DNA of 64,000 nt, taken from assembly GCA_902578135.1 (NCBI GenBank), contig CACHBU010000004.1, positions 8,120 through 72,119 on the forward strand. Reading direction: 5' to 3'. This stretch comes from an uncultured Candidatus Actinomarina sp. (GTDB lineage Bacteria > Actinomycetota > Acidimicrobiia > Actinomarinales > Actinomarinaceae). The notes below the pieces were generated by a model. That model ran no database searches, was not told the origin of the DNA, and saw nothing but the letters and a program-made list of their open reading frames with translations. This document shows, in pieces, positions 22,623 through 48,544 of the stretch (position 1 is its first letter; each line of letters begins with the position of its first letter). A program made the position numbers and the translations under genes.

Positions 22623-23258
22623 TTATATGTCCTTTAAATTATTCTTTTTCCACTCTTCGATATCTTTATGGTTACCAGAAAGCAAAACTTCAGGTACAGA
22701 CAGATTTTTAAATGTTTCCGGCCTTGTATAGACAGGAAAATCATATTTATTGTCATTAAATGTTTCATACTTTAATGAATCTGGATTTCCTAATACTCCT
22801 GGAATCCTTCTTATTAAAGCTTCGAGCATATACATCGCTGGAACTTCACCTCCAGAAATGACCGTGTGTCCAATTGAAACTTTATAATCTGCATGAATGT
22901 CCAAGATTCTTTGATCAAAACCTTCATATCTTCCTGCAATTAGATTTATGGACTTAAATGATAATAATTTAATTAATAGAGTTTCATCCAACTGCTCTCC
23001 TGATGGTGTTAGAAAAACATTAACCTCTGAATTTGAAGAGTTAATCGCATTATCTAATGGCTCAGGCATTAATACCATTCCAGGTCCCCCACCATATGGA
23101 GCATCATCTACTTGTTTATATTCTCCAATTCCAAATTCCCTTAAGTTTGTAGTTTGAATATTTACCAACTGATTTTTAATAGCTTGTCTCACAATGCCTA
23201 TATTTTTCCACTCCTCAATTAAATTAGGAAAGAGTGTAATGACATTATATGTATTCAT
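22623..23258 (-). CDS. trmD: tRNA (guanine37-N1)-methyltransferase
   Basis: 211 aa containing DDAPYGGGPGMVLMPEP and GRYEGFDQR. Confidence 0.95.
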   Translation of the reverse strand: MNTYNVITLFPNLIEEWKNIGIVRQAIKNQLVNIQTTNLREFGIGEYKQVDDAPYGGGPGMVLMPEPLDNAINSSNSEVNVFLTPSGEQLDETLLIKLLSFKSINLIAGRYEGFDQRILDIHADYKVSIGHTVISGGEVPAMYMLEALIRRIPGVLGNPDSLKYETFNDNKYDFPVYTRPETFKNLSVPEVLLSGNHKDIEEWKKNNLKDI

Positions 23259-25090
23259 GAATATGGGATTAAAGTTTTAGGATTTTTAAATTCTGTGTAA
23301 AGAGTATTTCTTAATATAGGTGTTTTGTTGCAATTTTCAATTATATCTATAAATTGCTGATCTGTAGTTTCTTGACCATGGTCGGCTCCGGAAGCTCTAC
23401 TAATATTTTCATTAATTAATGTACCTCCTAAATCATTGACACCTGCATCTAATAATTTACCAGCTCCATCATGTCCAAGCTTGACCCAACTTGCCTGTAT
23501 ATTATTTATTACATTTGAAAAATATATTCGAGCAAGTGAATGAATTAAGACAACTTCATCCCACGTAGGACCTGGCATGCTTTTTCCTTGCAGATAAATT
23601 GGAGATCCCATATGTACAAAAGGCAGGGGTACAACTTCTGTAAAACCTCCAGTTTTTAATTGGATATTCTTTATAAGCGAGAAATGATTTACCCATGACT
23701 CTACATCATCAATATGTCCAAACATAATTGTTGCTGTAGACTTCATTCCTAAACCGTGAGCTACTTCCATCACATATGCCCATTGAGATGACGTTATCTT
23801 ATCTGGACACAAATATTTTCGGATTCTATCATCTAATATTTCAGCTGCAGTTCCTGGTAATGTATTCAGACCAGCATCAAAAAGAAGTTTTAAATAATCT
23901 TCAATACTCAAATTTATTGTCTCAGCACCTTGCCATATTTCTAAAGGTGTAAAACCATGAATGTGCATTTCTGGTATTGATTGTTTTATTTCCCTTACCA
24001 TATTTAAATAAAATTCACCTGTGTAATCAGGATGTATTCCTCCCTGTAAACATACTTCGGAAGCTCCCATTTCAAAAGCCTCAACGGTTCTATCTACTAC
24101 CTCTTTTATATCAATAGAATATGGTTTTTCTTTAAGATTTAAACTTTTTGGACCTTTTGAGAATCCACAGAAACCACATTTGTAATAGCATTGATTTGTA
24201 TAGTTAATATTTCTATTTTTAACAAAAGTTACTTTGTTGCCATTTTTTAGGAAATTTAATTGATTTGCAACATCAGCGATATCATTTATTTTTTCACCAG
24301 CAGTATTAAATAAAAGATTTAATTCATCATCATTAATTTGATAACCATTTAATACATTATTTAGAATCTCATCTATGCCGAAATGATTTATTTGGCTTTT
24401 ATTGTTATATACAAGATTGTTTAACTGAGGTATATCTTTTCCGCTACCAGGAAACCAATCGGTTTTCTCTCTTCTAAATCCTCTTACGTTTCTTGTGTTT
24501 AAATATCTAAAGAAACGCTCTTTAGTGAATTCTTTCCTTGCTTCATCAATTGAAAAAACCGGAGATAGTAACGTTCTCTCGTAAAAATTAAAACCTTGAA
24601 TACTTTGTAATTCATCAATTTGTGCTGAACTCCAATCTCTCAGCAACAAATCAGAAATTCCATTTTTAATGTAGCCAAGTGCTTCGTCAATAGTGTTTAC
24701 GTATGCTGTTGTTATAAATTTAGTTTTTGTGTTTATTCCTTTTAAAAAATTTATGTCTAAAGGATCTGATACCAATACAGTGTAGGGCTTCAATCTATCT
24801 ATAACTTCAAGTGAAATTTCTTTGTTATTTTTAAAATCATAAACAATTCTTTTGGGATTTATATCCTTAAAGTCTTCCCAATTATTATCCTTAATTATCC
24901 AACAATCAGAATCTACTGATACATCTTTAGACAAAGTTTGAAAATCTTTTTTATGTATTTCACTAATATCAAGATCTAATTCACTTTTAATTAAAAAAGC
25001 AGATGTGCCCTCTTTTCGTCTAGAATTTAGATAGATTTCATTATTGTTATCGCAGGGTCTTATTCTTAAAAAAGAAATATTTTCATTCAT
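23255..25090 (-). CDS. cofH: FO (7,8-didemethyl-8-hydroxy-5-deazariboflavin) synthase subunit CofH with an extra ~245-aa N-terminal domain
   Basis: Radical-SAM motif CYYKCGFCGF followed by a CofH-like core. The start is set to ATG 25090, which overlaps the cofG stop (ATGAATGA). Confidence 0.85.
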   Translation of the reverse strand: MNENISFLRIRPCDNNNEIYLNSRRKEGTSAFLIKSELDLDISEIHKKDFQTLSKDVSVDSDCWIIKDNNWEDFKDINPKRIVYDFKNNKEISLEVIDRLKPYTVLVSDPLDINFLKGINTKTKFITTAYVNTIDEALGYIKNGISDLLLRDWSSAQIDELQSIQGFNFYERTLLSPVFSIDEARKEFTKERFFRYLNTRNVRGFRREKTDWFPGSGKDIPQLNNLVYNNKSQINHFGIDEILNNVLNGYQINDDELNLLFNTAGEKINDIADVANQLNFLKNGNKVTFVKNRNINYTNQCYYKCGFCGFSKGPKSLNLKEKPYSIDIKEVVDRTVEAFEMGASEVCLQGGIHPDYTGEFYLNMVREIKQSIPEMHIHGFTPLEIWQGAETINLSIEDYLKLLFDAGLNTLPGTAAEILDDRIRKYLCPDKITSSQWAYVMEVAHGLGMKSTATIMFGHIDDVESWVNHFSLIKNIQLKTGGFTEVVPLPFVHMGSPIYLQGKSMPGPTWDEVVLIHSLARIYFSNVINNIQASWVKLGHDGAGKLLDAGVNDLGGTLINENISRASGADHGQETTDQQFIDIIENCNKTPILRNTLYTEFKNPKTLIPYS

Positions 25091-26201
25091 GTGAGTCTTT
25101 TGGGTAACCATCTGTATCAATAATATTATTAACTTTTTCAAAAATTTCGTCATTTAACCATTCTTTTTTTATAAATTCTGGATATATTGGGAGTCTTTTT
25201 TTAAGCACCTGACAAGTTAATGAAGTATCTTTTTTTAATTTATCAATATTTGGCCAAAGATGATCTGGGTTTACCCAATCTATAGTCAATGGTGAAATTC
25301 CACCAAGATCATTTATTCCACTTTTTAGAAACAAATTTATGTCTGGCGACAAATTAGGTGGAACTTGAATTGAAACATGAGAAGGAGAATATATTCTAGT
25401 GGTAGCAATTATTCTTAAAAATAAGTCATTTGTAATTTCAGAATTATTCTTCATAATAGTATTTTTTTTAGCTCTAAAGTTTTGAAGGATAATCTCCTGA
25501 ATAGCCATATTATTTTGAATTAATAAAATGATGTTTGTTATATCATCTACCACTTCATCTTTGGTAGAAGTAAGTCCTAAAAGAAGCCCTGTAGTTACTG
25601 GGTACTTTGCTTGTAGAGCATTTTCTAGAGATTCCATTCTAAGATCGATAAATTTTGTTTGAGTTTTGTAATGAGCTTGTCCCTTATCATATATATTTTT
25701 TGAAAATGTTTCAATCATTAAGCCGCCGGATGGTGAATATTTTTTTAACTCTTTTATTTCTTCAAAACTCATCAATCCGGGATTTGCATGTGGAAATAAT
25801 TTAAACGTATCATTTACTTTTTTCATTGAACTGATCAAGTAATCATGAGTTGAAGAAAATCCAAGTTGTTCGAGTTGAGTCAACGCAAAGTCCCATTTTA
25901 ATTCTGGCTTATCCCCTAATGTAAATAAAGCCTCATAACATCCTGCTTCATCACCTGCACCTGCAATACTTAAAACTTCTTCTTCGTTTAAATATGTTCC
26001 ACCTTCATTTGGTGATTTAACAAAAGTGCAATATCCACAACTATCTCTACACATTGTTGTAAGTGGTATGAATACTTTTGGGCTGTAAGTTATTGTATTT
26101 CCAAAATAATTTATTTTTCTATCGAATGCTTTAGAAAGCAAATCTTCAGTTGGTTCAGGTCCAAAAATTGAATCGTGAATATTTCTTCTTAATTCTCTCA
26201 T
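25083..26201 (-). CDS. cofG: FO synthase subunit CofG
   Basis: 372 aa with radical-SAM motif CRDSCGYCTF. Translationally coupled to cofH. Confidence 0.87.
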   Translation of the reverse strand: MRELRRNIHDSIFGPEPTEDLLSKAFDRKINYFGNTITYSPKVFIPLTTMCRDSCGYCTFVKSPNEGGTYLNEEEVLSIAGAGDEAGCYEALFTLGDKPELKWDFALTQLEQLGFSSTHDYLISSMKKVNDTFKLFPHANPGLMSFEEIKELKKYSPSGGLMIETFSKNIYDKGQAHYKTQTKFIDLRMESLENALQAKYPVTTGLLLGLTSTKDEVVDDITNIILLIQNNMAIQEIILQNFRAKKNTIMKNNSEITNDLFLRIIATTRIYSPSHVSIQVPPNLSPDINLFLKSGINDLGGISPLTIDWVNPDHLWPNIDKLKKDTSLTCQVLKKRLPIYPEFIKKEWLNDEIFEKVNNIIDTDGYPKDSHE

Positions 26202-43569: not shown

Positions 43570-45692
43570 GTAGTTCCACTTGCTTTAAAATAATTTGGAA
43601 ATAGAATTTGTGCTTCCTCAAACATAAGTTTTTTAATATCTTCAGATTCAATTTTATCAAATATATTTTTTGATTCTAATAGCAGTTCATAGTCGTATCT
43701 CAAATCGGCTATCTTTAAATCAGATTGTCCAGATTGGCTTGTACCAGTAACTTTACCTTCACCTCTAATCTCTAAATCAATTTCTGATAATTTAAAGCCA
43801 TCTTTTATATTTACAATCGCTTCTAATCTTCTCTTTCCATCTTCACTGATTGTATTTAATGTTTTTTTCTTAGAAACATGAAAAATACATTCTGATTGTT
43901 TGTCACTTCTCCCAACCCTACCTCTTAATTGGTGTAGTTGGTTTAATCCAAATCTTTCAGCGCTTTCAATAATCATTAATGTTGCATTTGGTATATCTAT
44001 TCCAACTTCAATAACAACTGTAGAAACTAGGATATCTACTTTACCATTCTTCATATCTTGCATTATTTGGTCTTTTTCATCAAAAGACATCTTTCCATGA
44101 AGAATTGAAACATTGTAATCTTTAAACTTTTCTTTATACTCAACGAAAACATTTTCAGCAGCTTGAATATCCACCAATTCACTTTCTTCAATAAATGGGC
44201 AGACTACAAATATTTGTGATTTTTTCTGGAGATGAAACTCACAAATATCATAAATAGTTTCGTTATCTTTTTTTGATCCTTCTATTAGATGGGAAGTAAT
44301 GTCTTTTCTCCCAGGTGGTAATTCATTAATCGAAGAAATTTCTAAATCTCCATAAATTGACAATGCTGTAGTTCTTGGAATTGGTGTAGCAGTCATAACT
44401 AACTGGTCAGGAATATCTCCAGTTTCATTTATTAGCTTTTTTCTTTGCTCTACACCAAATCTCTGTTGTTCATCAATAATAGCAAACCCAAGATTTGAAA
44501 ATTTAATACTTTCCTGAATTAGTGCGTGCGTACCAATATAAAGGGCTGGTTTACCATTATTTAAGTTGTCTAAAATATTTTCTCTATCTTTAATTGATGA
44601 AGTAAGTAGGTATATGTCACATTGATCTTTATTCATAAATTGATTAATTGAGGCAAAGTGTTGCTCAGCTAAAACCTCTGTTGGAGCCATTAATGCAACC
44701 TGATAGCCTGATTTAATTGCAGCATAAGATGCGATAGTAGCCACGACTGTTTTTCCTGAACCAACATCGCCTTGCAGCAGTCTTTTCATAGGATAATTTT
44801 TTCTAAAATCCTCTAAAATTTCATTTACAGCATTTAATTGCGATTGTGTTAATTGAAATGGGAGTTGGTCTATAAATTCATCTATGTCCGAATTAGAAAA
44901 TGTGTAAACTAATCCTTTATTTTCATTCTTATATTTTGACTTTAGATTTTCAAATATTGACCTTAAATAAATAAACTCATCTAAAACTAATCTCCGTCTT
45001 GCATTTTTATAGTCAACTTCGTTTTTTGGAAAATGAATCTTTTTTATACTTTGTAATCTATTTTCAAGAGAATGTTCTTTTATGATTTCAGAAGGCAAGA
45101 CATCAAATAATCCAGGTGTAAAATCATCTTTTGTCGACTCTAATATAGCGATAATTTCCTTTAACCCTTTTCTAATGCTTGCGCTTGTCATGCCCTCTAC
45201 TTTTTTGTAAATAGGAATAAAAGAACCCGTCTCATTTAATTCTTCAATATCAGTAAATTTTTCAATAGCTGGATTTTTAAAATCAACACTTCCAGTTTTT
45301 TTAACTTCAGGCTTTCCTGACACAGCAACTACTTCACCTTCTTTAAATCTAGACTCTATATATTGAGGACCAAACCATTTAGCTTTTAAACTTCCTGATT
45401 CATCAGAAATACTCAGTGTTGCAATTCTCAATCTTGTCTTAGTAGTAAAAACGGAAACTTTATCAATAGTTCCAAAGATAGTTACTTCATTATTTTCATC
45501 ATTTTTATTGATTTCAGATATTAACTTAACCTTTGATCTGTCAATATGTGTTCTTGGAAAATAGCGAATTAAATCAGCAACAGTTTTTAATTTACTTTTT
45601 TTTAAACTTGCATACTTTTTTTCGCCTATTCCCCTAACAAAACTAAGTTCTATTTCGTCTAAATATTTAAAGCTTCTTTCAACCACAATCAA
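43566..45692 (-). CDS. recG: ATP-dependent DNA helicase RecG
   Basis: 708 aa with a wedge domain and helicase motifs GDVGSGKT, DEQQRFG and LHQLRGRVGR. Confidence 0.95.
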   Translation of the reverse strand: MIVVERSFKYLDEIELSFVRGIGEKKYASLKKSKLKTVADLIRYFPRTHIDRSKVKLISEINKNDENNEVTIFGTIDKVSVFTTKTRLRIATLSISDESGSLKAKWFGPQYIESRFKEGEVVAVSGKPEVKKTGSVDFKNPAIEKFTDIEELNETGSFIPIYKKVEGMTSASIRKGLKEIIAILESTKDDFTPGLFDVLPSEIIKEHSLENRLQSIKKIHFPKNEVDYKNARRRLVLDEFIYLRSIFENLKSKYKNENKGLVYTFSNSDIDEFIDQLPFQLTQSQLNAVNEILEDFRKNYPMKRLLQGDVGSGKTVVATIASYAAIKSGYQVALMAPTEVLAEQHFASINQFMNKDQCDIYLLTSSIKDRENILDNLNNGKPALYIGTHALIQESIKFSNLGFAIIDEQQRFGVEQRKKLINETGDIPDQLVMTATPIPRTTALSIYGDLEISSINELPPGRKDITSHLIEGSKKDNETIYDICEFHLQKKSQIFVVCPFIEESELVDIQAAENVFVEYKEKFKDYNVSILHGKMSFDEKDQIMQDMKNGKVDILVSTVVIEVGIDIPNATLMIIESAERFGLNQLHQLRGRVGRSDKQSECIFHVSKKKTLNTISEDGKRRLEAIVNIKDGFKLSEIDLEIRGEGKVTGTSQSGQSDLKIADLRYDYELLLESKNIFDKIESEDIKKLMFEEAQILFPNYFKASGTT

Positions 45693-45776
45693 ACATTACC
45701 TAAAAAGTTTTAAAATGAAAGTACCTACAAATTAATAAATTAGTTATAGTTAGAATTGTATTTTGGAGGAAATATT

Positions 45777-46013
45777 ATGGCAAATAGATGTCAAGTTACA
45801 GGAAGAGAACCACGCTCTGGGAAGAACGTTTCCTTTTCTCATAAACGAAATCCCCGATGGTTTAAACCAAATATTCAAACAAAAAAATATTGGCTTGCTA
45901 GCGAAAATAGATGGGTAAAACTTAAAGTTAGTACAAGAGGAAACAAAATTATTGATAAGCGCGGAATAGAGTCAGTTGTTAAGGAAATTAGACAAAGAGG
46001 CGAAAAAGTTTAA
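45777..46013 (+). CDS. rpmB: 50S ribosomal protein L28
   Basis: Starts MANRCQVTGREPRSGKNVSFSHKRN. ATG 45777 is preceded by GGAGG. Confidence 0.94.
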   Translation: MANRCQVTGREPRSGKNVSFSHKRNPRWFKPNIQTKKYWLASENRWVKLKVSTRGNKIIDKRGIESVVKEIRQRGEKV

Positions 46014-46228
46014 TGGCACAAGGTGTTGTTAAATCGTATGACCCAAATACCGGAAACGGGATTATTTTATTAGATACCGACAAATCAGAAGTTTTTATTA
46101 TTCCAGGTTCTCTTAAAGGATCTATTTTTAGAACATTAAGACAGGGTCAGAGAATAAATTTCGAAATTGAAGCACAAGATGACGTAAATATTGTCAAAAA
46201 TATCCGAATTGGACAAGATAAGTACTAA
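46013..46228 (+). CDS. cold-shock-domain-like small beta-barrel protein (RNP motifs degenerate)
   Basis: 71 aa with Csp-like spacing (GVVKSYDPNTGNGIILLD...VFII...LRQGQRINFEIE) but without the aromatic RNP1/RNP2 residues. Confidence 0.5.
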   Translation: MAQGVVKSYDPNTGNGIILLDTDKSEVFIIPGSLKGSIFRTLRQGQRINFEIEAQDDVNIVKNIRIGQDKY

Positions 46229-46236
46229 ACAACTTA

Positions 46237-47436
46237 ATGTCCTTAATTAATTTAGACTTATCCAACGAAGAAATAATTAACAAATATTTTAATGATTTAT
46301 GCTGCGATAAGTACATAGAACCTTTAATAAAAGGGGGTCAATCCAATGCAGATAATGCTTTAAACACACTAGATATTAAAAATTATGCAAAAACAAGAAA
46401 TAATGTATTTCCAATTGAAAAAAGAGGTTCGTCTTATTTATCTGCTTATATACGACATGGTTTAATTTCGTTACCCGAAGTATGGAATTTTGTAGAAAAA
46501 TTTGAATACCAAGATAAAACAAAATTCAGAGATGAGCTGTTATGGCAAGAGTTTTCGAGGCATTTATACGCAATTGTAGGTAAAAATTCAAATGATTATT
46601 TAAATTATGCAATCAAATCAAATAAAAATATTGAAAAAAACTATCAAAACATGAATTGTATTAATTCAATTAAAACAGAGCTTGAAAGCACTGGATACAT
46701 GGTTAATCAAACAAGAATGTGGTTTGCATCCCATTTTTCATTGCGAACTGGAGATAACTGGAGAAATTATGAAGATTACATGTTTAAACATCTAGTTGAT
46801 GGATCAAGATTTGCAAATAGATTAGGTTGGCATTGGGTTATGGGCTCTCAAACTGGAAAAGTGTATGGTTTTTCAAAATTCCAAGTAGACAAAAGAGCGA
46901 AAAGTTTTTGTGACAACTGTGAGGTCAAATACAATTGTCCTATACAAAATTGGCCTGAAGAAATCAACATAACTAAAAAAACAATAGATGTTGATTTGAA
47001 TCTTGAAACTAATTTTGGACCTGAAAGTATAAAAAATAATATTGATTCAAAACCTGATTTTGTTTGGATGACTGCTGAGTCACTAGGAGACAATGATCCA
47101 GCATTGAATTATTATTCAAATCTTCCAGCTGTTTTTATTTTTGACAAGCCTTTATTAAATTATTTACAACTTTCAACTAAAAGAATTATATTTTTATTGG
47201 ATTGTCTAAGAGAATTATCTTATAAGAGAAGTACTCAAGTGTACTTAGATAATCCAATTGAATATCTTAAAAATAAAAATTTTGCATGCACATTTGCGGC
47301 AGTCCCAAAATACAAAAAAATAACTCGAGTAAATATTCCAACTTCCGAATTCCCATCTGTTAGATTAGTAAAGCCTATTAATTTTTATCCATCGAGTTAT
47401 AGTTCTTGGAAAAAAAGAATAGAATTGAATATATGA
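46237..47436 (+). CDS. photolyase/cryptochrome-superfamily protein with apparent swapped domain order and a CxxCx5C motif
   Basis: aa ~30-235 match the photolyase FAD-binding domain (GSSYLSAYIRHGLIS, LLWQEFSRHLY, STGYMVNQTRMWFASHF, ANRLGWHWVMG). aa ~274-399 resemble the photolyase N-terminal alpha/beta domain (FVWMTAESLGDNDPAL ... AVFIFD ... KRIIFLLDCLRELS). Confidence 0.75.
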   Translation: MSLINLDLSNEEIINKYFNDLCCDKYIEPLIKGGQSNADNALNTLDIKNYAKTRNNVFPIEKRGSSYLSAYIRHGLISLPEVWNFVEKFEYQDKTKFRDELLWQEFSRHLYAIVGKNSNDYLNYAIKSNKNIEKNYQNMNCINSIKTELESTGYMVNQTRMWFASHFSLRTGDNWRNYEDYMFKHLVDGSRFANRLGWHWVMGSQTGKVYGFSKFQVDKRAKSFCDNCEVKYNCPIQNWPEEINITKKTIDVDLNLETNFGPESIKNNIDSKPDFVWMTAESLGDNDPALNYYSNLPAVFIFDKPLLNYLQLSTKRIIFLLDCLRELSYKRSTQVYLDNPIEYLKNKNFACTFAAVPKYKKITRVNIPTSEFPSVRLVKPINFYPSSYSSWKKRIELNI

Positions 47437-47855
47437 AAAGATATTTATTATTTTTATTTCTTTTCTTTCATAACTATATTTATATTTACTCAAACGGAAG
47501 AATCGGTAAATTTTTAAATAACCGTCCTTGTTTAATACTTCATACAACTGGGGCAAAAACAAATCTGGAAAGAAAAAATGTTTTAGTTTTTCTTAAAGAG
47601 GATAATGAAATTTGCATTGTAGCCTCAAAAGGTGGGAGTGATACTAATCCAGGCTGGTATCACAATTTAAAAAAATATCCTGAGTGTGAAGTCCAAATTG
47701 GAAGAGAAAAATTTAAAGCAGTATCTAGAGAAATATTTGAAGATGAAAAAAATGAGTGGTGGAACAAAATGGATTATATGAATAACGGTGGCTACTCTGC
47801 TTATCAAAGAAGAACGGAAAGAAAAATTCCTGTATTAATACTAAATATTTCTTAG
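47433..47855 (+). CDS. deazaflavin (F420)-dependent nitroreductase (DDN/PF04075-like) family protein
   Basis: Contains ILHTTGAKTNLERKNVLVFLKEDNEICIVASKGGSDTNPGWYHNLKKYPECEVQIG. ATG 47433 overlaps the upstream TGA. Hydrophobic N-terminal helix. Confidence 0.8.
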   Translation: MKRYLLFLFLFFHNYIYIYSNGRIGKFLNNRPCLILHTTGAKTNLERKNVLVFLKEDNEICIVASKGGSDTNPGWYHNLKKYPECEVQIGREKFKAVSREIFEDEKNEWWNKMDYMNNGGYSAYQRRTERKIPVLILNIS

Positions 47856-47908
47856 TCACATTATGCGCCTAAGAAAGTTTTGTAATTTATTTTAAGAATA
47901 TCCCCTGT

Positions 47909-48544
47909 TTATAGACTTTTTAAAATCTGATTTATTATTTCAATATCTAACATTTCAACTATTTGATCTGCTTCACTCAGTTGTTCTTTAGAAAACATAC
48001 CTCTGTCTATAGCTAAAACATAAGAGCCTGAAGCTTTACCAGATGAAATGCCTGTCGGACTATCTTCGATAACTAAATTATTAGAAGTTCCCAATTGTTC
48101 TATCGCCTTATTGTAAATGTCTGGATATGGTTTGTTTCTACTAACCTGATTTCCTCCAATAACAAAATCAAAATAAGAATCAACCTTGAACTTTTGAAGT
48201 TTTTTACTTAATAACTCATATGGACTTGCAGATACACAGGCCTGTTTATGTTCTAGTTGCGATAATTGATAAAGGAGTTGTTTTGAATCTTGAAATATTA
48301 TTCTTTCATCTAGAGAGTTTTCAATTATTGAACCTAGCTTTGACATCGTTTGATCGAAATTTTCTAGATTTACCTGATCCGAATAAAACGAATGCACTAT
48401 CCTGTCATCAACTCCAATAAATTGTTTTATTTCATCTTCAGGGATACTTAATCCAAATGCTTTTAAATGTGTCTGCCATGCATAGGCATAGAGTCGCTCA
48501 GTATCCATGATTGTTCCATCACAGTCCCAATGTATACCGAGCAT
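47909..48544 (-). CDS. HAD-superfamily hydrolase (beta-phosphoglucomutase-like subfamily)
   Basis: N-terminal DCDGTIMDTE (DxDGT) and a distal EDSPTGISSGKASG motif. Confidence 0.8.
   Translation of the reverse strand: MLGIHWDCDGTIMDTERLYAYAWQTHLKAFGLSIPEDEIKQFIGVDDRIVHSFYSDQVNLENFDQTMSKLGSIIENSLDERIIFQDSKQLLYQLSQLEHKQACVSASPYELLSKKLQKFKVDSYFDFVIGGNQVSRNKPYPDIYNKAIEQLGTSNNLVIEDSPTGISSGKASGSYVLAIDRGMFSKEQLSEADQIVEMLDIEIINQILKSL

Follow-up and report, generated by a model that had tools for sequence, protein, structure and literature searches.

Photolyases with an inverted domain order have been described under two names. Emmerich et al. (2020, NAR; PMC7736829) defined the NewPHL class by its inverted topology and by a C-terminal "Z-domain," and found that two of its members repair cyclobutane pyrimidine dimers (CPDs) in single-stranded DNA only. 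The fold of the Z-domain is called "unknown" in their main text, and the legend to their Figure 5 records a "striking similarity" between its first 125 aa and the antenna-binding domain; a conserved Trp and a "GFF" motif were also noted in it (PMC7736829). Working independently, Xu et al. (2021, Mol Biol Evol; PMC8476157) described this class under the name short photolyase-like (SPL) and reported that about one third of SPLs (subgroups C and Ac) carry four conserved Cys resembling the [4Fe-4S] ligands of PhrB. RfSPL from Rhodococcus fascians, a protein of 406 aa with Cys155, Cys239, Cys242, and Cys248 (five residues between the last two), contains FAD together with an Fe-S cluster; it repairs CPDs and leaves (6-4) photoproducts unrepaired (PMC8476157). 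These data are modest, with low cofactor occupancy and an EPR signal more like that of [3Fe-4S]+, and the authors call their conclusion "tentative" (PMC8476157). The activity published for members of the class is on single-stranded DNA or oligo-dT.

The window, which is the whole stretch of 64,000 nucleotides that we analyzed, contains a gene that very probably encodes an SPL/NewPHL-class photolyase of the four-Cys subgroup, orthologous to RfSPL and with the CPD-repair mechanism proposed below (Table 1). We infer the cofactors and activity of the window protein from those of RfSPL, DsNewPHL (Dinoroseobacter shibae), and MmNewPHL (Methylobacterium mesophilicum). A previous sequence-only reading of this DNA had delimited the ORF correctly (46237..47436, forward strand), and all of the peptide blocks that it quoted occur in the translation. 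Its suggestion that no circularly permuted member of the superfamily had been described was mistaken, as NewPHL (PMC7736829, 2020) and SPL (PMC8476157, 2021) are exactly such proteins. Both the inverted-topology class and the Fe-S subgroup within it have been published before, and the window gene is an ordinary member.

Table 1. Features of the photolyase locus and of the FO synthase genes, in window coordinates.
Feature	Position	Strand	Remarks
rpmB (L28)	45777..46013	+	Pfam
Cold-shock-domain (CSD) protein	46013..46228	+	71 aa; PF00313, E = 9e-7
SPL/NewPHL-class photolyase gene (probable), actinobacterial four-Cys subgroup	46237..47436	+	399 aa, ATG start
FAD-binding/catalytic helical domain, N-terminal	46327..46941	+	aa ~31-235; Pfam, NCBIfam, PDB by sequence and fold
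Cys141, first putative Fe-S ligand	46657..46659	+	= RfSPL Cys155
C225-x2-C228-x5-C234, three putative [4Fe-4S] ligands	46909..46938	+	= RfSPL Cys239/242/248
Variable interdomain linker	46957..47052	+	aa ~241-272; gap-rich, poorly conserved alignment columns; mostly coil in model
Z-domain, truncated alpha/beta, homologous by profile and model to the canonical N-terminal antenna domain	47053..47433	+	aa ~273-399
DDN-family F420H2_quin_red gene	47433..47855	+	PF04075, E = 2.2e-36; TIGR00026; ATGA overlap with SPL stop
CofH (FO synthase)	23255..25153	-	TIGR03551, 453 bits
CofG (FO synthase)	25083..26201	-	TIGR03550, 351.6 bits

Catalytic domain and class membership

FAD_binding_7 was the only Pfam family found in the 399-aa protein (aa 99-224, E = 8.5e-9), and positions ~207-420 of the NCBIfam photolyase and DASH models matched query aa 34-227, with no Pfam or NCBIfam match N-terminal to this catalytic part. 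The alignment of such late model positions with the start of the query indicates that the chain begins with the domain that is usually C-terminal. Searching the PDB with phmmer retrieved the class I photolyases 1TEZ, 1OWL, 4U63, 1DNP, and 1IQR over the same catalytic part. The full-length AlphaFold2 model, computed with a 32-sequence alignment of homologues down to 41% identity, has a pLDDT of 92.4 and a pTM of 0.91. Foldseek aligned 215-250 columns of this model with class I, II, and III photolyases, DASH proteins, and plant and animal-like cryptochromes, and also matched the Fe-S photolyase PhrB (4DJA, 5KCM, 5LFA; TMq of 0.43 for 4dja); because the search is sequential, only the catalytic domain was aligned, and the permutation cannot be addressed in this way. 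Neither phmmer nor Foldseek found a NewPHL or SPL structure in the PDB copy searched, which is why the window protein, a compact and well-conserved orthologue, should be of value for structural work.

The family is large (3069 homologues at E≤1e-3, almost all with lengths of ~395-415 aa) and, when one genome was scanned for each species, proved to be spread over the Actinomycetota, with hosts in Candidatus Actinomarina/OCS155, Nanopelagicales, Acidimicrobiia, Ilumatobacter, Mycobacterium, Pseudonocardia, Rhodococcus, Solirubrobacterales, and Nitriliruptoria. All homologues in the 32-sequence alignment begin at the same N-terminal point. The CPD-site, FAD-site, and electron-transfer residues of the catalytic domain (E100, W103, N157, R160, M161, W175, D188, N194, G197, W198, and W200) are invariant in this alignment and, save for a single W175F, are kept in 81 of 81 actinobacterial species. 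The class I-type residues, including A193, are conserved and map to the RfSPL and EcCPDI residues given by Xu et al. (PMC8476157).

Orthology with RfSPL was traced through a homologue from Rhodococcus sp. 06-235-1A, which also has 406 aa and is 43% identical to the window protein (167 of 387 aligned positions). This homologue matches the RfSPL numbering at C155, C239, C242, C248, R174, D202, A207, N208, G211, W212, W189, Q172, R228, Q230, and K233, and all of these residues, those of the FAD site and CPD site and the Trp residues among them, recur in the window protein at an offset of -14, with the exception of R228, which is replaced by K214. The shared numbering points to an orthologue within the Fe-S actinobacterial subgroup, even though the identity is only 43%. 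The window protein further resembles RfSPL in length class (399 versus 406 aa), in architecture, in the spacing of its Cys (C-x83-C-x2-C-x5-C), and in its conserved C-terminal domain. It differs in its host, a streamlined, AT-rich marine genome of ~1 Mb (Candidatus Actinomarina), in being the only CPD-type photolyase of that host, whereas R. fascians has further photolyases, and in its translational coupling to a DDN-family gene, a linkage unseen at other actinobacterial SPL loci.

[quoted passage not shown] Within the class, the C-x83-C-x2-C-x5-C pattern is that of subgroup Ac, to which RfSPL belongs. Canonical class I, II, and III photolyases and cryptochromes have an N-terminal PF00875 domain and a C-terminal FAD_binding_7 domain, the reverse of the order seen here. 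Likewise, the FeS-BCP/CryPro proteins are defined by an N-terminal DPRP domain (PF04244) and a C-x2-C-x12-C motif, whereas the window protein has no PF04244 match and a spacer of x5.

DsNewPHL and MmNewPHL share with the window protein the inverted topology and a class I-like CPD active site, as well as the NewPHL architecture, in which an N-terminal catalytic domain is followed by a C-terminal Z-domain of ~150 aa sealing off the FAD, without an N-terminal antenna domain. They belong to SPL subgroup A, however, and lack both the four Cys and the Fe-S cluster (PMC8476157). The GFF motif of the NewPHL Z-domain is not evident in the subgroup of the window protein, whose consensus retains invariant W277 and W391; the published logo represents mostly subgroup A. 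The FeS-BCP/CryPro (6-4) photolyases (PhrB, 4DJA; CryB, 3ZXS) have a four-Cys [4Fe-4S] site at the corresponding position of the helical domain, with the same 1+3 arrangement, and match the catalytic domain in fold, but differ in their canonical domain order, DMRL/8-HDF antenna, and (6-4) specificity. For the catalytic domain, the best sequence and fold matches are class I CPD photolyases (E. coli Phr, 1DNP; Synechococcus, 1TEZ/1QNF; Thermus, 1IQR), with which the window protein shares its active-site residues and to whose N-terminal domain its Z-domain is homologous. It departs from them in its reversed domain order, in its putative Fe-S site, in having no antenna shown, and in the shortening of its alpha/beta domain (~125 aa versus ~160-200 aa).

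The C-terminal domain and the cysteine site

The homology of the Z-domain to the antenna domain of canonical photolyases is established by profile comparison and structure prediction. Single-sequence Pfam analysis of the C-terminal 137 aa of the window protein gave no match. Among the C-terminal pieces of 25 homologues, 10 matched PF00875 (best E = 0.0033); no other Pfam family was matched by more than one piece. [quoted passage not shown] In a profile-profile comparison by hhalign, with 24 canonical PF00875 domains extracted from Actinomycetota genomes as reference (18 class I-type and six class II-type), the Z-domain matched the complete set with a probability of 96.4% (P = 1.3e-9, 112 columns) and the 18 class I-type domains with a probability of 96.1% (P = 3.5e-9, 109 columns). 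The alignment is in register from beta1 (VWlTaESLGDxDPAL against vVwFrRDLRLxDxPaL). Control profiles (one reversed, 20 column-shuffled) did not exceed a probability of 1.2%, with P≥0.043 and scores of at most 17.6 compared to 57.7-59.8 for the real profiles. The match to the six class II-type N-terminal domains was not significant (probability 1.8%), indicating that the hhalign signal stems from the class I-type profile.

In the full-length model, residues 275-372 are predicted to form a Rossmann-like b-a-b-a-b-a-b-a-b unit, with pLDDT values of 92-97 across the Z-domain, and the Z-domain folded alone gave the same secondary-structure elements at a pLDDT of 91.3. When the isolated domain was submitted to Foldseek, good superpositions were obtained on the Methanosarcina mazei class II photolyase only (TMq of 0.5-0.62, rmsd of 3.5-4.4 Å, probability up to 0.97), at E-values of 0.1-0.5 that are not significant; the remaining matches had a TMq of 0.4 or less. 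Four residues of the domain are invariant (W277, P288, R316, and W391). The model also suggests that the Z-domain lies over the FAD at the position of the antenna domain, a placement that draws on the high pTM and on the covariation analysis of Emmerich et al. (PMC7736829).

The permuted order proposed by the sequence-only reading is thus borne out for the C-terminal ~125 aa by hhalign, PF00875, AlphaFold2, and Foldseek. Of the two HMM matches that it anticipated, FAD_binding_7 was found directly and the C-terminal PF00875 only through homologues and profile methods. It had named two findings that would speak against it, a C-terminus unlike photolyases and an N-terminal domain encoded upstream through a frameshift; the C-terminus is photolyase-like, and only 8 nt separate the CSD gene from the ATG. 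A frameshifted or missing upstream domain was rejected, as the L28 and CSD genes fill the space and the homologues share the start. Our results provide statistical and structural-model support for the Z-domain as a true antenna-domain homologue, a question left half-open in the 2020 paper (PMC7736829), and this homology bears on the placement of the SPL/NewPHL class near the root of the cryptochrome/photolyase family.

The C-x2-C-x5-C motif that the sequence-only reading had noticed was found at nt 46909..46938 as C225, C228, and C234, and a fourth invariant Cys that it had overlooked, C141, completes a 1+3 ligand set. All four are invariant in the 32-sequence alignment and in 81 of 81 Actinomycetota species, whereas the other Cys of the protein (C22, C23, C323, and C351) vary freely among the 81 sequences. 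Conservation of this kind, whose lack would have counted against the motif, and a spacing identical to that of the ligands proposed for RfSPL (PMC8476157) both uphold the earlier comparison with the FeS-BCP site. By analogy with RfSPL, we interpret the four Cys, at the end of the catalytic domain, as a putative [4Fe-4S]-type cluster site.

Proposed mechanism and alternative interpretations

In the mechanism that we propose, the N-terminal helical domain would bind FAD and contribute what appears to be the full set of class I-type CPD-binding and electron-transfer residues. The FAD would be photoreduced to FADH-, after which blue or near-UV light would drive the transfer of an electron to a flipped-out CPD, splitting the dimer. 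C141, C225, C228, and C234 would hold a [4Fe-4S]-type cluster similar to that of the FeS-BCPs, with a last spacer of x5 instead of x12, and the Z-domain, moved to the opposite end of the chain, would pack on the catalytic domain and shield the FAD.

The domain order could also have arisen by loss of the antenna domain and addition of an unrelated, generic Rossmann-like extension, with no permutation involved. The C-terminal piece of the window protein by itself lacks a Pfam match, the Foldseek E-values of the isolated Z-domain are poor, and the main text of Emmerich et al. describes an order of secondary-structure elements unlike that of a typical Rossmann fold (PMC7736829), all of which would fit such an origin. 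We nevertheless consider it extremely improbable, since the hhalign alignment extends over 109-112 columns from beta1 onward and stands clear of all 21 controls, the top ten PDB profile matches are without exception CPF N-terminal domains, PF00875 is the sole family matched by more than one member, and the Figure 5 legend of the same paper finds the first 125 aa strikingly antenna-domain-like (PMC7736829). A different doubt attaches to the Cys site, which might coordinate zinc or be a structural knuckle and not the seat of an Fe-S cluster: C-x2-C...C motifs frequently bind Zn, a weak Pfam match to Zn_ribbon_Elf1 covers aa 218-251 (E = 0.53), and the Fe and S occupancy of RfSPL is only ~0.15 mol per mol (PMC8476157). 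RfSPL, however, absorbs in a band at 410 nm, contains acid-labile sulfide, has Fe, S, and FAD in a ratio of ~3.5:4:1, and gives an EPR signal at low temperature, and its Cys positions model onto the [4Fe-4S] ligands of PhrB (PMC8476157), itself among the fold matches of the catalytic domain, which makes zinc binding highly improbable.

The protein might also be a light sensor or regulator, i.e., a bacterial cryptochrome in which the Z-domain or the Fe-S cluster serves as signaling output. Xu et al. raised this option because SPLs have C-terminal extensions and RfSPL was only weakly active in vitro (PMC8476157), and the gene string at our locus holds a cold-shock-domain protein and a redox enzyme rather than repair genes. 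Nonetheless, the residues of the CPD site that separate photolyases from cryptochromes (E100, W103, N157, M161, and W200) are invariant in 81 of 81 species, in vitro repair of CPDs is documented for each of RfSPL, DsNewPHL, and MmNewPHL (PMC8476157, PMC7736829), and the genus is without another CPD photolyase, so that a sensory role appears very unlikely. For CPD repair, the reading that we favor, the activity on single-stranded DNA only that was reported for NewPHLs (PMC7736829) sits awkwardly with a role as the sole CPD photolyase of an organism of the sunlit ocean.

Photolyase complement and gene neighborhood

The genome (~0.99 Mb, 87% complete) has as its nearest records single-cell genomes of Candidatus Actinomarina. 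PF00875, the marker of canonical photolyases, has no match in this 87%-complete genome or in 11 of 12 genus-mates, and the twelfth (G090) has a single borderline match of 26.6 bits, exactly at the cut-off; six of eight class-mates possess a canonical photolyase. The absence of PF00875 from the genome and from 11 of the 12 genus-mates indicates that the genus has no CPD-type photolyase besides the SPL. That a bacterium of the sunlit ocean, among the smallest of those that live freely, depends on this class for its only CPD-type photolyase speaks against the view of SPLs as mere remnants.

The genome encodes one other CPF protein, of 515 aa with DPRP and FAD_binding_7 domains (contig 1, L001:529..2076, forward strand), which can be aligned over its full length with FeS-BCP (6-4) photolyases of known structure (E ~1e-85). 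The presence of both an SPL and a (6-4)-type enzyme agrees with the co-occurrence rule of Emmerich et al. (PMC7736829). At its cluster motif, the DPRP protein has YKKGDWCDV and then a deletion of 10 residues, against YCKGCRYDV...ddaCp in the template, which leaves it without three of the four Cys ligands of the Fe-S cluster. The (6-4)-type DPRP enzyme of the host is apparently cluster-less, whereas the SPL retains its cluster site.

The SPL gene lies in a tight string with rpmB, csd, and the DDN gene (Table 1). The ATG of the CSD gene overlaps the rpmB stop codon (TAATG). A promoter and terminator scan of 45500..48100 returned nothing above the shuffled expectation. SPL and DDN are adjacent in 26 of 26 loci of the Actinomarina clade, down to 56% SPL identity, and L28 and CSD genes lie upstream in 24 of the 26. 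By contrast, tblastn at E≤1e-4, a search that divergent DDNs could escape, detected no DDN beside the SPL in any of the 54 remaining actinobacterial loci. Contig 12 carries a second DDN paralogue.

Most simply, the DDN protein is an ordinary F420H2-dependent enzyme. We regard it as unlikely that the Fe-S SPL, as sole CPD photolyase, forms a functional pair with this coupled deazaflavin protein. In one variant of such a pairing, F420H2 would maintain the reduced state of the FAD or of the Fe-S cluster in darkness; in another, the antenna-homologous Z-domain would bind FO (8-HDF) as its antenna. An FO antenna would have gone unseen in RfSPL and the NewPHLs, as these were expressed in E. coli, which is FO-free. 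Genuine CofG and CofH genes for FO synthesis lie in the window. CofD and CofE were not found in the 87%-complete assembly. Of 12 genus-mates, 11 have CofD, so its absence here reflects the completeness of 87%, and absences in this assembly are unreliable. The same distribution of CofD led us to reject the possibility that FO is made solely as a photolyase antenna, without an F420 pathway. FO synthase is encoded by two overlapping genes (23255..26201, reverse strand), and CofH carries an unexplained N-terminal extension of ~260 aa; a frame of 612-632 aa recurs in genus-mates.
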